Under the pieces are notes generated by a model. That model was given only the letters and a program-made list of their open reading frames with translations. It was not told the origin of the DNA and searched no databases. Shown one piece after another: positions 13,410 to 20,740 of a stretch of DNA of 22,881 nucleotides; position 1 is the first letter of the stretch; each line of letters begins with the position of its first letter. Origin of the DNA: a virus (lineage: Duplodnaviria > Heunggongvirae > Uroviricota > Caudoviricetes); the IMG/VR virus record IMGVR_UViG_2734482777_000003, one strand, 5' to 3'. A program made the position numbers and the translations under genes.

Positions 13410-15167
13410 TTAAAGCGAGCGGATGCCCACGCTGACCAGATGTTCAGACAGATCCAGCTCCGGTTCACCACCATTGACCAGCATCCGGCTCATTGCTGTA
13501 AACATCGCAACAGGGCCGTCGATTTTGGCTTCCAGCGTGGATTTATTCGGGAAGATATTGTCGTTTTTGTCCGGTTTTACCGTAACGTTAGACATCATCC
13601 AGTTCATGACCGGATGATTGCTGTGATGGAAACGCCCGGCATAGACCAGTGATTCCGTTTCCTTCATGGCCTCTGACAGATTGCGAACCGTCTGCGGAAC
13701 CTCCACCAGCGGTATCCCTTCTTCAGCCAGTGCCAGGCTGAACTGCATCGCGCTCCACGGGTCAAATCCCAGTTCCCTGAGGTTTTCACCACCAATCCAT
13801 TCCAGTAAGTCACTTTTTATCTGAGCATGATCGATAACATCACCATCCGTCAGAATCAGCTTATCCATCTCCGACCACTTCCGGTAAAGTTCTGCCTGCT
13901 GCCGCGAGCATCGTTCCAGCCGTCCTTCCGGAAGCCAGAATTTAAAATCGGCATGAACATGCCCGTTATCCGTTCGCCAGAGTTTTGCCGCCGCACAGAT
14001 ATCAATCTTATGAGCAAGGTCAACGCCGACCCACATGGGATACGTTTTCAGCTCATGTCGTGGGGCAATGTATTCGCACTTCTCCCACTTAATCATGTCC
14101 ATCCAGGCAGACTCTGCTGTTACCCACACATTCATGTGTTTGGTAAAAAAATTCACCCGCGCAGAGACCTGTTCTTTCGCTTTTTTCGCCAGACGACGCA
14201 GATCATCCCAGCGTTTACAGATGCCCAGGCCGGGATTTGCTTTCTGCCAGACCGTTTCATCAAACGGATCATCTCCCTCATCGAGGGTGTAAATAATCGC
14301 AAAGTAGGAGTCGTCTTTTACAGCGCCCTCCACGTCGCTGTTATAGCCACGCAATACCTTGATGGCGTAATCACGCTGCTCGTAACAAATCCCTTCCTTG
14401 TTAAACCCTGCCGTGGTGATACCAAATAAAAGGGACTGCAGACGGGCACCGGTTGCCGTTTCCAGAACGTCCCACACGTCACGGGTTTTATGTGCATGCA
14501 GCTCATCAATAATGGCGCAGTGGATGTTCAGACCATCCAGGTTGTTTGCATCCGAAGAAAGCGGTTCAAATTTTGATGCGCTCTGCTCCTGGTAAATCGC
14601 CAGCTTGTTGAAATCAAACAACCGCCCGAGTGTCGACCGGGCTTTTCTGACCATATTTTTGGCGTCTTCAAACACGATTCTGGCCTGGTCACGCGTGGTT
14701 GCGGCTGAATACACCTCAGCTCCGCCTTCACCATCTGCCCCCGTCATATACAGGCCGATACCCGATGACAGAGTTGATTTTGCGTTTTTACGGGCGACTT
14801 CGTTGTACGCCGTCCGGAACCGGCGCACCATCACCGGACGTCCGCTGCCATCGCTGCGCATGACAACTTCTCCGGTCTCTTCATTGACCAGCGGAATGAC
14901 AAAACCAAAAATATTAATGAGGATAAATACATGCCAGTCCATCAACTCAATGGGCTGGCCTGCCAGCGCCCCTTTTACATGAGGCACAAATTTGTAGAAA
15001 TTCAGGATGTGCTGCGCACGGGGTTCACTGAAATAAATCCCCCGCTCTTCGCCGTACTTCAGATCATCAAGAAAACGCTGGCAGGCCAGGCGGACAAATT
15101 CGCCAGCAACAATTTCTCCTGCAACAACACGTTCGGCGTAGCGGATCCCGTCAGCCACTTTTGCCAT
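13410..15167 (-). CDS. Terminase large subunit
   Basis: 585 aa ORF; its ATG overlaps the TerS stop (ATGA); size and position between TerS and portal. Confidence 0.9.
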
Positions 15168-15649
15168 CAGTCTCTCGCTTTTAAAAGCTCCGCCAGCGGA
15201 TCAACATCATCCGGTCCGGCGATATTTACTTTAGCCCGGCTTGCCGGTGACATACCAAACTCTGCAAGCATTGCCCGGATCCGCTTCCAGGCATCCGCTT
15301 TCATTGCCGCCGCGGGGTGCGCCTTAATCAGTACATCACCGCTCTGCGTTTTCGTGCGGTAGGTATACCCCTCAACATCTAGTGTTTCGCAGTGATGCCG
15401 ATATTCGGTGTAGGCTTCCACCAGCAACTCGAGTGCACGCGCATCAAGCTGAGAAATGATCCCTTCCGCATTCAGCTCTTCCGCCATTCGCCTGAACCAG
15501 TACTTCCCCTGTGCCCCTAAATGCTGCGGAATTTTAGGAAGACCTTTTTCATCCTTTTTAGCGGTTTTTTTGGGGTCTTTAACGGGGCGCTTTGAGGGGT
15601 TGCCTCGTATCAAATGCAGGCGTGGCGGGGTTTTCGGAGGTCCTGACAT
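15167..15649 (-). CDS. Terminase small subunit
   Basis: 160 aa with a basic Lys/Pro-rich N-terminus, immediately upstream of and coupled to TerL. Confidence 0.8.
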   Translation of the reverse strand: MSGPPKTPPRLHLIRGNPSKRPVKDPKKTAKKDEKGLPKIPQHLGAQGKYWFRRMAEELNAEGIISQLDARALELLVEAYTEYRHHCETLDVEGYTYRTKTQSGDVLIKAHPAAAMKADAWKRIRAMLAEFGMSPASRAKVNIAGPDDVDPLAELLKARD

Positions 15650-15699
15650 AATCGGTCTTACCTATCAATCGTTTGTTCACATTTCCAAAAAAAGTTTTC

Positions 15700-15790
15700 G
15701 AACCTGCGGCGATGTGAGGAAGGGTCAGGCGGCGGTACTGAGCAGCCAGGGTTGCAGAGATTTGACCCGCCCCTCCCCTACAGATGGGAA
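15700..15790 (-). other. Candidate cos / packaging-site region between the HNH and TerS genes
   Basis: Non-coding 147 bp gap with a GC-rich element (plus strand GGTCAGGCGGCGGTACTGAGC, partly symmetric TCAG...CTGA) and a G-rich run (rc GGGGAGGGGCGGG). Position is where cos lies in HK97-like phages. Exact nick sites are not determinable here. Confidence 0.25.
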
Positions 15791-15796
15791 CTGTTA

Positions 15797-16147
15797 TCAA
15801 TTGATGCGTTCGCGCGCTGTTTTTGCTTTATGACAGGGCCAGCACAGACTCTGCAGGTTACTGTCTGCATCCGTGCCACCATGAGCTTTCGGAATGATGT
15901 GGTCCACAGTTCTGGCTTCAACGGCTCTCCCATTGCGCAGGCAGTTCTGACACAGATGATTATCACGCTTCAGTATGCGCGCACGTGTGGCATCCCATTT
16001 CGAGCCATAGCCACGCTGGTGGCGGCTCAGTCCGCGTTGATGCTGTACCCATCCTTCGCCACGATGTTTATCGCAGTAACCAGAACTGTCTGTGGTTGTA
16101 CCTGCACATCCACGCTTACGGCAGGCGCGTGGGATTCGTGATGGCAT
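15797..16147 (-). CDS. HNH endonuclease (terminase-associated, HK97 gp74-like position)
   Basis: 116 aa with Cys pairs and an HNH core (CQNCLRNGRAVEARTVDHIIPKAHGG...NLQSLCWPCHKAK). GAGGT lies 4 nt upstream of the ATG. Confidence 0.85.
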   Translation of the reverse strand: MPSRIPRACRKRGCAGTTTDSSGYCDKHRGEGWVQHQRGLSRHQRGYGSKWDATRARILKRDNHLCQNCLRNGRAVEARTVDHIIPKAHGGTDADSNLQSLCWPCHKAKTARERIN

Positions 16148-18113: not shown

Positions 18114-18188
<75 letters not shown>

Positions 18189-18191
18189 ATA

Positions 18192-18267
<76 letters not shown>

Positions 18268-18269
18268 AC

Positions 18270-18346
18270 TGGACCGCCACCGGGGACTCGAACCTCGCAC
18301 ACTCAACTTAAAGGGTTGACGCTCTTTCCTGATGAGCTAGTGGCGG
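18270..18346 (-). tRNA. tRNA-like gene with non-canonical features (anticodon loop CCUUUAA, formally UUU/Lys)
   Basis: Reverse complement reads CCGCCACTAGCTCATCAGGAAAGAGCGTCAACCCTTTAAGTTGAGTGTGCGAGGTTCGAGTCCCCGGTGGCGGTCCA. Cloverleaf is foldable but has C at position 33, a C1-G72 pair and an A-C mismatch in the T stem. May be an unusual phage tRNA or a pseudo-tRNA. Confidence 0.4.
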
Positions 18347-18347
18347 T

Positions 18348-18423
18348 TGGTGGCCCTTGCTGGATTTGAACCAGCGACCTGGCGATTATGAGTCGCTCGC
18401 TCTCACCACTGAGCTAAAGGGCC
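18348..18423 (-). tRNA. tRNA with CAU anticodon, most like tRNA-Ile2 (ileX/ileZ-like; Met cannot be excluded)
   Basis: Reverse complement reads GGCCCTTTAGCTCAGTGGTGAGAGCGAGCGACTCATAATCGCCAGGTCGCTGGTTCAAATCCAGCAAGGGCCACCA. Anticodon loop CUCAUAA; strong resemblance to E. coli ileX. Confidence 0.75.
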
Positions 18424-19684: not shown

Positions 19685-20740
19685 TCATGCTTTCCACTTC
19701 AGGACACCCGAATTTCTCGCGTGCATTAAAAAACGAATCAGCAACAACAGCTGGCTGCCGTGTTTTTCTTCAAAATCTTTTACCCCGGCGTGCAGTTCGT
19801 GATGACATTTACGGCACAGCGGAATAACAAACAAATCATCAGCCTTTGTTCCCATCCCTCCCAGTCCATGACCAATGATGTGATGCGGATCATCTGCCTG
19901 ATTACCGCACGTCATGCATTTCTGCGTTTTTACCCAGCGTGTGTATACAGGCATCTCTTCCCGTTGTGGTTTCTGGCGCTGGAGATACTGAGCCGGTGAC
20001 TCCGGATCAACAGCAATGCTGACCACCGTCTTTTCCTGTGGCGGGTTTTGCTGGTGGGCGTGAGGCAGCGGCGCAAGATTTTTTGTGCGCTGCTTCAGTA
20101 TGCTGGTGGCGGTCTGCTCTCCCGGTACGATGTCGCTTTCACGGTACATTGAGCGGATTTTTTCCGCACGCAACCCCAGCGAACGACGTAATACCGCTTC
20201 CGGTAGCGCGTCCGCCACCTGATTGCGGACCGCCCACCAGGATAATTCAGCCAGAGATAATTCACGCTCCTGCGTACCGCTTATTGCGTGACCGATGACG
20301 TCAATCATCCATGCTGACAGGTTTTGATGAGCAAGTTGCTCGAGTGATTCGGATGTCTGGTCACGCAGCTGGTTGTCGCAGTGCCAGCACAACACCATTG
20401 CGCCGGTACCATAACGGTGAATGACGGTTTCGCTGTGATGATAATCGCCGTGTGGCCACTGGCAGGATTTAATATGGCGCAACAGCCAGTCAGACAATGC
20501 ACCAGCACCACCAGCAGCACGAATCACCCGTGCGTTACTGAAAAACGGCAGCAATGTTTTGTCTTCCACCAGCGGCTGGCGAACGGCAGGAACGACCCCG
20601 GACGGCAGATTACGCATGCTTTTCGGTTCCGGCTCCACCAATACCCGGGTATTGTGGAATACCGGCATGGATTCACGGCCCGGCTTAACGATCACCAGCC
20701 CGAGTTCCGGTACCAGAACAGGTCGAAGTAATACCCGCAC
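19685..20740 (-). CDS. DUF968-family phage protein (YdfU-like) with C-terminal HNH/zinc-finger-like motif
   Basis: 351 aa. C-terminus CMTCGNQADDPHHIIGHGLGGMGTKADDLFVIPLCRKCHHELH has a Cys4/His arrangement. Sits upstream of rusA and Q as ydfU does in Qin. Start codon is GTG. Confidence 0.55.
   Translation of the reverse strand: MRVLLRPVLVPELGLVIVKPGRESMPVFHNTRVLVEPEPKSMRNLPSGVVPAVRQPLVEDKTLLPFFSNARVIRAAGGAGALSDWLLRHIKSCQWPHGDYHHSETVIHRYGTGAMVLCWHCDNQLRDQTSESLEQLAHQNLSAWMIDVIGHAISGTQERELSLAELSWWAVRNQVADALPEAVLRRSLGLRAEKIRSMYRESDIVPGEQTATSILKQRTKNLAPLPHAHQQNPPQEKTVVSIAVDPESPAQYLQRQKPQREEMPVYTRWVKTQKCMTCGNQADDPHHIIGHGLGGMGTKADDLFVIPLCRKCHHELHAGVKDFEEKHGSQLLLLIRFLMHARNSGVLKWKA

Follow-up and report, generated by a model that had tools for sequence, protein, structure and literature searches.

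What does the short non-coding gap between a small nuclease gene and the terminase genes do in this prophage: does it hold the cos site at which packaged DNA is cut, and if so, at which bases and by which protein? We addressed these questions by comparative analysis of the whole stretch of DNA (22,881 nt; hereafter, the window) and its relatives.

The packaging genes and the gap between them

Every gene of the window is on the minus strand, and the arrangement is that of a lambdoid late operon. Its 5' part consists of antiterminator Q, four tRNAs, a P21-type holin, a DUF1327 protein, lysozyme and Rz/Rz1, and leads to the HNH gene. This gene is followed by a 147-bp gap, TerS, TerL, portal, S78 protease, HK97-fold capsid, connector proteins, tail tube and tape measure. 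Pfam matches were obtained for the portal (PF04860), protease (PF04586) and capsid (PF05065), and the HK97-type content also includes a gp6-like connector and a gp10-like protein. All packaging, head and tail ORFs are intact. The tRNA genes between Q and holin (18114-18423, minus strand) are Met-CAT, Lys-TTT, Thr-TGT and Gly-TCC. Stx phages carry stx between Q and holin; no toxin gene was found at this position in the window. A second HNH-type nuclease, a 351-aa DUF968 protein with an HNHc_6 match, is encoded at 19685-20740 (minus strand) in the Nin region, adjoining RusA and Q on their upstream side.

Chromosomes of bovine E. coli isolates carry the 1151-bp stretch from the HNH gene through the gap to TerS with 100% identity; the stretch shares 99.1% identity with phage vB_EcoM-606R7 and 95.8% with Stx2f phage phi467. 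A total of 1771 of 5426 complete E. coli genomes contained the module, 927 of these with at least 80% coverage. The packaging module is ordinary: it is of a textbook type and is carried as a prophage by about a third of complete E. coli genomes. The RefSeq names already given to its products are "HNH endonuclease", "phage terminase small subunit P27 family" and "terminase large subunit". The feature is known in kind and its genes are publicly annotated, the cos site itself excepted.

The original prediction described a 116-aa HNH nuclease directly upstream of TerS, and its coordinates and sizes proved exact. The gene occupies 15797-16147 on the minus strand, and its product matched Pfam HNH (PF01844, E = 1.9e-16) and the "HNH endonuclease" family PHROG 144 (E = 4e-41). 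An N-terminal zinc ribbon (C9-x4-C14, C25-x2-H28) is combined with a C-terminal HNH domain carrying [CxxC]2 (C66-x2-C69, C102-x2-C105), which is the arrangement of Group 1 zinc-ribbon HNH proteins. The beta-beta-alpha-metal HNH motif is intact, metal-binding His included. Catalytic residues H83, N97 and H106 align with H93, N109 and H118 of the GVE2 enzyme (5h0m) and are invariant in an alignment of the window protein with those of phiP27, SfV, mEp235 and HK97. Identity was 90% to phiP27 L34 and 74% to SfV orf53; to the core of HK97 gp74, it was 37% by BLASTP and 41% in the multiple alignment. Full-length matches were found to phage gamma HNH (37% identical, E = 3e-15) and to the GVE2 HNH structure 5h0m (E = 3.3e-16).

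TerS (160 aa; 15167-15649, minus strand; PHROG 83) belongs to the P27 family. It matched Terminase_4 (PF05119, of the PF05119/TIGR01558 family; E = 2.6e-25) with 89.1 bits against a cut-off of 24.7, over profile positions 2-97 of 98. Its identity was 75% to mEp235 gp1, 27% to phage gamma TerS and approximately 20% to phiP27 and SfV TerS. With HK97 gp1, BLASTP produced no alignment and hhalign gave a probability of 0.1%, and the TerS profile had no match in PDB. By sequence, TerS is therefore not of the HK97 gp1 type, although the two may share a fold. No solved structure of a P27-family small terminase was detectable by sequence. An AF2 model of TerS built from 33 sequences (pLDDT 67.7) yielded only generic helical structure matches; only residues 40-130, comprising two long helices and a beta-hairpin, reached a pLDDT of 75-86, and the N-terminal 40 residues were disordered. 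TerL (13410-15167, minus strand) is of the HK97 type, with TerL_ATPase (PF03354) and TerL_nuclease (PF20441) domains, and is 29% identical to HK97 gp2 (E = 9e-41) and 38% to phiP27 L36 (E = 2e-119). A lambda-type cos served by a Nu1 TerS and a gpA TerL was also rejected, given the Pfam matches to Terminase_4 and HK97-type TerL domains. The HK97-like setting that had been proposed therefore holds for HNH, TerL, portal, protease and capsid, but not for TerS, which is of the P27 family.

The gap spans 15650-15796 between the HNH and TerS genes and is non-coding, as had been predicted: its T-run (15687-15693) varies between T7 and T9 in close relatives, and this variation is incompatible with a reading frame through it. 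A search of the gap against Rfam gave no match, and promoter and terminator scans of it gave no signal. The GC-rich, partly symmetric element reported there survived in one respect only. Its G+C content is 66.7% at positions -54 to -1 relative to the predicted cut (15778-15725), compared to 52% in the window and 43% in the remaining gap. Symmetry was rejected, with the best dyad equalled in 148 of 500 shuffles, as was secondary structure, with a single-strand DNA fold at z = -0.04. No dyad was conserved at any fixed column across 44 family members.

Position and register of the predicted cut

HNH homology was used to pick 80 loci in GTDB genomes, and these seeded a DNA profile. To avoid circularity, this was then rebuilt solely from 43 matches in those genomes, all from other genera. 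The rebuilt profile had a single match in the window, the cos core at 15706-15777 on the minus strand (nhmmer, E = 5e-16), and it is this homology, confined to the one place, that makes the gap element more than chance. Across 162 sequences (160 HNH-homology loci, the window and phiP27), there were 124 profile matches, one per sequence, each on the strand of HNH and always downstream of the HNH gene.

The register of the cut was read from relatives with mapped or annotated ends. In HK97, whose 10-nt 3' overhangs are established (PMC9410871, PMC11331095), the profile matched the junction with E = 2.5e-10, and column 53 fell on the final base of the record. As this GenBank record begins at the published +1, which we checked against the TerS site (T16, G21, A-tract 24-29), the HK97 overhang is its last 10 nt, CGCCGCCAAA. 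Profile columns 44-53 also coincide with the 10-bp "cos-site" CGCCCGCCCC annotated in the phiP27 record between the HNH and TerS genes, and with TGCCCGCCCC of SfV and SfI. For SfI, virion DNA ends were sequenced directly, giving a 10-nt gap of the same sequence (PMC3636060). Reading from HNH to TerS, the window, HK97, phiP27 and SfV have a common layout: a G-rich block (G-box), exactly 24 nt ending in (G/T)AC, and the 10-nt end.

In the window, columns 44-53 predict a 10-nt 3' cohesive end CGCCGCCTGA at 15734-15725 (minus strand). On the phage top strand, which is the minus strand, the nick is predicted between 15725 and 15724, and on the bottom strand between 15734 and 15735 (plus strand 5'-GGCG^GTAC-3', where ^ marks the nick). 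The place and register of the predicted cut are shown by homology to mapped or annotated ends, and the candidate cos site suggested for the gap is borne out to that extent: its core is homologous to those of HK97, phiP27 and SfV/SfI, phages for which 10-nt 3' ends have been mapped or annotated.

Pairwise, the resemblance to HK97 is modest (35 of 54 ungapped positions in the core). BLAST of the window against the HK97 junction found only the 9-mer ACCGCCGCC, and the relation is visible only with the family profile. We also looked for deposited sequences that end at the site. An exact 23-mer scan of IMG/VR returned 117 stretches, most of them prophage predictions and none ending at the site. For metagenome contigs, a 16-mer proved too short: the matches came mostly from unrelated soil contigs, and none of them stopped at the site. 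The mEp235 record is linearised at the TerS start codon rather than at cos and is uninformative on ends. A 1682-bp WGS contig of Edwardsiella anguillarum CCUG 64215 (contig_0000051) stops exactly at column 53; its end reads …CCGTAC TGCCCGCCTC, that is, just after the predicted 10-nt overhang. This anecdotal case, suggestive only, fits an assembly break by linear virion DNA from spontaneous induction. A further ORF sometimes separates the HNH gene from the core. In Escherichia phage PhiR49_2 (locus 700-1500), an insert of about 800 bp, holding a moron-like reverse-strand ORF of 171 aa, separates the HNH gene from an intact cos core.

Conserved blocks around the predicted cut and the strand question

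The most conserved non-coding block is the G-box GGGGAGGGGCGGGTCAAATC, located at -54 to -35 (15759-15778, minus strand). Its information content is near-maximal across 43 diverse loci, and it lies at an equal distance from the nick in HK97, phiP27, SfV and Bacillus phage gamma. Despite divergence of the flanking genes, the consensus GGGAGGGGCGGGTCAAATC is kept across a range that starts with E. coli and reaches Alteromonas, Bacillus phage gamma and a Clostridia MAG (HK97, L090/L091; phiP27, L001; phage gamma, L413; further loci, L092-L135). The phi105 equivalent is C-rich, CCCCCCACCCTTAAATC. The G-box may represent a docking site or a cosQ-like cos subsite.

Between the G-box and the predicted cohesive end lies a spacer (15735-15758, minus strand) of variable sequence and fixed length, 24 nt in the window, HK97, phiP27, SfV and the family alignment, which ends in the invariant (G/T)AC. 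Outside the G-box, information content is highest at G.AC^.GCC around the bottom-strand nick; the top-strand nick falls in variable sequence. The overhang of the window, CGCCGCCTGA, was also the most frequent one in a set of 80 close relatives (HNH 89-100% identical), and the others included CGCCCGCCAA, CGCCCGCCTA, CGCCCGCCCC and CGCCCGCCTC.

Comparison of 61 unique relatives showed that the near-invariant part of the gap is longest to the right of the predicted cut, in the block CATCGCCGCAGGTTCGAAAACTTTTTTT at +11 to +38 (15687-15714, minus strand), a G+C-rich motif followed by the T-run. Its position and make-up mirror the mapped HK97 TerS site, a G/C motif plus A-tract at +15 to +29 (PMC11331095), and by this analogy it is a probable TerS site. 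The class of this right-hand block followed TerS type in all 118 loci where both were readable, although TerS and a neighbouring block would be co-inherited through adjacency alone. Window/mEp235-like TerS goes with ..CGCCGCAGGTT.GAAAAC and a T-run, phiP27/SfV-like TerS with a T-run and ACCCGCGAAA, and a third TerS type with TTTTTAC... Further on, between the predicted cut and the TerS start codon, the IHF-consensus match TATCAATCGTTTG (+50 to +62; 15663-15675, plus strand) is the only match to WATCAANNNNTTR in the window and is invariant in the 61 unique relatives. It abuts the ribosome-binding site of TerS (AGGTAAG, 15657-15663, minus strand), and signals for translation could explain its conservation equally well.

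The two sides of the cut recombine independently. Among the 80 close relatives, the left half (G-box, spacer and overhang nt 1-8) and the right half (from about +1) occurred in differing combinations, such as a phiP27-type left half joined to a window-type right half. Breakpoints fell within the final 2 nt of the overhang or at +1 (L070, L076, L077, L084 and others), which places them at the predicted top-strand nick (15724/15725). The predicted cos cut looks like a point of module exchange, with HNH and the cos core on one side and the TerS site and TerS on the other.

We consider it likely (probability of about 0.85) that the gap is the cos of an HK97/phiP27-type lambdoid E. coli prophage, with TerS acting on the +11 to +38 block and two nicks leaving a 10-nt 3' overhang. 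During packaging, the P27-family TerS would most likely bind +11 to +38 on concatemeric DNA, perhaps helped by IHF at +50 to +62, and would bring TerL and the HNH protein to the cos core, where a pair of staggered nicks would then leave the overhang on the minus strand at 15734-15725. The HNH protein may nick the bottom strand at the invariant AC^CG (plus strand GGCG^GTAC, 15734/15735), and the TerL nuclease may nick the top strand between 15725 and 15724. The G-box, 24 bp upstream, would be a further conserved subsite of cos.

The proposed assignment of strands follows from the homologous zinc-ribbon HNH proteins of phage gamma and GVE2. These enzymes, N.phiGamma and N.phiE2 (GVE2, PDB 5h0m), are strand-specific nickases that cut CG^GT, equivalent to AC^CG (Xu & Gupta 2013; PMC3592412 Table 1). 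A candidate CGGT site is present at the predicted bottom-strand nick in the window (plus strand, 15733-15736), and every mapped member has ...GGCG^GTC... on the bottom strand at the nick. Phage gamma has the same G-box and spacing. Its record ends GTAC^CGCCGCCCC, a 9-nt end repeated at both termini, and in this phage the genome end falls at a site of the known enzyme specificity. The 9-nt end was read from the terminal repeat of the record; full-text searching with the phage gamma cos string turned up nothing relevant. A single strand cut by each nuclease is also one of the options raised for HK97 (PMC11331095). Against a division of strands, SfV-type relatives have CA^GT rather than CG^GT, and the annotated 7-nt end of phi105 is 1 nt off the published N.phi105 site. 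Moreover, ACCG is 4 bp long and occurs twice in the gap, so that it confers no specificity by itself. In a limited search, we found no literature linking a published HNH nicking specificity to a mapped cos nick. Taken together, we give about even odds to the HNH protein cutting one strand and TerL the other.

The alternative is that TerL makes both nicks while HNH merely stimulates or licenses it, the AC^CG match being a 4-bp coincidence. In vivo, cos cleavage depends on HK97 gp74, which also stimulates the reaction in vitro (PMC13595911, PMC9410871). The gp74 protein is described as stimulating terminase-mediated cleavage and can be bypassed in vitro by high terminase concentrations (PMC13595911), and both gp74 and the lactococcal HrdP are reported to be non-specific nucleases when alone. 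Chechik et al. likewise raised the option that TerL cuts both strands and translocates between the cuts (PMC11331095). These points favor the alternative; it is opposed by the requirement for the metal-binding His of gp74 (PMC13595911), by the coincidence of enzyme specificity and genome end in phage gamma, and by the distribution of conserved bases, which lie on the bottom-strand nick and leave the top-strand nick in variable sequence. On balance, we regard two cuts by TerL as rather unlikely, and the strand-divided cut remains our preferred reading. Its generalization is tentative, and we judge it slightly more likely to be wrong than right. It would posit, for this very large phage family, one fixed and deeply conserved cos architecture (G-box, about 24 bp, then (G/T)AC^CG) that extends from Enterobacterales as far as Bacillus and Clostridia, with AC^CG as the HNH site, TerL cutting the top strand, a cosQ-like G-box, and the nick as an exchange hotspot.

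Alternative readings and relation to known systems

Other readings of the locus deny the gap or its neighbor a present role in packaging. HNH genes are often mobile, and several phage records label this one "homing endonuclease"; it could be a free-standing selfish insert without a packaging role. However, 124 of the 160 loci, which range from Enterobacterales to Bacillus, have the gene in a fixed position and orientation upstream of the cos core, and its product matches characterised terminase-associated HNH proteins over the full length. An HNH-less allele with an intact cos core, which would mark a homing endonuclease, was not found, and the sole record with a truncated HNH, that of Escherichia phage Evi, is also without the cos core. 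A selfish insert is therefore very improbable. Similarly slight is the chance that packaging is headful or cos lies elsewhere, the gap element being a transcriptional or translational signal of the late operon. The gap does lie within the late transcript, and the TerS-adjacent block overlaps the 5' UTR of TerS. Against this reading stand the HK97-type TerL, the unique 3' cohesive ends of relatives that share the core, the absence of promoter, terminator and Rfam signals from the gap, and conservation of the core across phyla while flanking genes diverge.

A defective prophage with a relic cos site, no longer in use, is improbable, if less so than either of these. It would suit the many cryptic prophages of E. 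coli, the visible DNA of only 22.9 kb and the rearranged junction in the related Evi record. It does not suit the intact packaging, head and tail ORFs, the unchanged core and catalytic residues, or the deposition as phages of relatives that are about 96-99% identical, including Stx2f phage phi467. In Evi itself (LR597642.1, locus 660-830), HNH is truncated after ...PKAHGG; in place of its 3' end and the entire cos core, the record carries the 5' part of TerS as an inverted copy. This junction is either a defective element or an assembly artefact at genome ends.

We compared the module to characterised systems. It has the features of the HNH-dependent HK97-like cos module as Kala et al. 2014 are represented in PMC13595911: an HNH gene next to the terminase genes, the HNH motif, and TerL, portal and capsid of the HK97 type. 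Judged by sequence, it belongs to these packaging systems. It shares with HK97 the prophage order gp74 (HNH) - cos - gp1 (TerS) - gp2 (TerL), the portal, protease and capsid types, and a cos core with G-box, 24-bp spacer, GAC^CGCCGCC and 10-nt 3' overhang. Downstream of the cut, both have a TerS site (a candidate in the window) with a G/C motif and an A/T tract. In contrast to the window protein, gp74 is without the N-terminal zinc ribbon and the second CxxC; the distance from HNH gene to cos in HK97 is about 320 bp, and TerS starts at +50 in HK97 but at +76 in the window.

As its P27-family TerS is not detectably related to HK97 gp1, the module is best modelled on phiP27, SfV and Bacillus phage gamma, not on HK97. 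With phiP27 and SfV/SfI, the window shares the P27-family TerS and a cos core identical up to the overhang; they differ in the last bases of the overhang and in the right side and TerS, which are of another subtype. The right half of the window is mosaic and resembles mEp235 and Klebsiella phages rather than phiP27/SfV. Phage gamma shares the Group 1 HNH, a P27-family (TIGR01558) TerS, a PF03354 TerL and the same cos architecture, and the gamma/GVE2 nicking site CG^GT is the same as the sequence at the family's bottom-strand nick; the differences are the Gram-positive hosts and, in gamma, the 9-nt overhang. On these comparisons, the left half is closest among characterised systems to phiP27 and SfV/SfI and the right half to mEp235; for HNH enzymology, phage gamma and GVE2 come nearest. 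The parallel with lambda (cosQ-cosN-cosB, IHF site I1) extends to an upstream element, a nick site, a downstream TerS-binding region and a possible IHF site, and the lambda cut site is also a boundary between exchangeable modules. Lambda differs in its 12-nt 5' overhangs, absence of an HNH protein, and unrelated TerS (Nu1) and TerL families, and a cosQ-like role of the G-box is only an analogy.

Our analysis contributes a prediction of the ends at base level, together with a comparative account of the cos core. As a by-product, the comparison offers a cheap, testable answer to the open HK97 question of who cuts which strand; the cos-core profile, the way in which TerS type and right-hand block vary together, and the match of AC^CG to the HNH nicking site provide the material for it. 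For a prophage family that includes Stx2f phages, cos is predicted to the base (15734-15725), and the predicted ends may help in orienting genomes and in forecasting cos-dependent transduction or satellite mobilisation.
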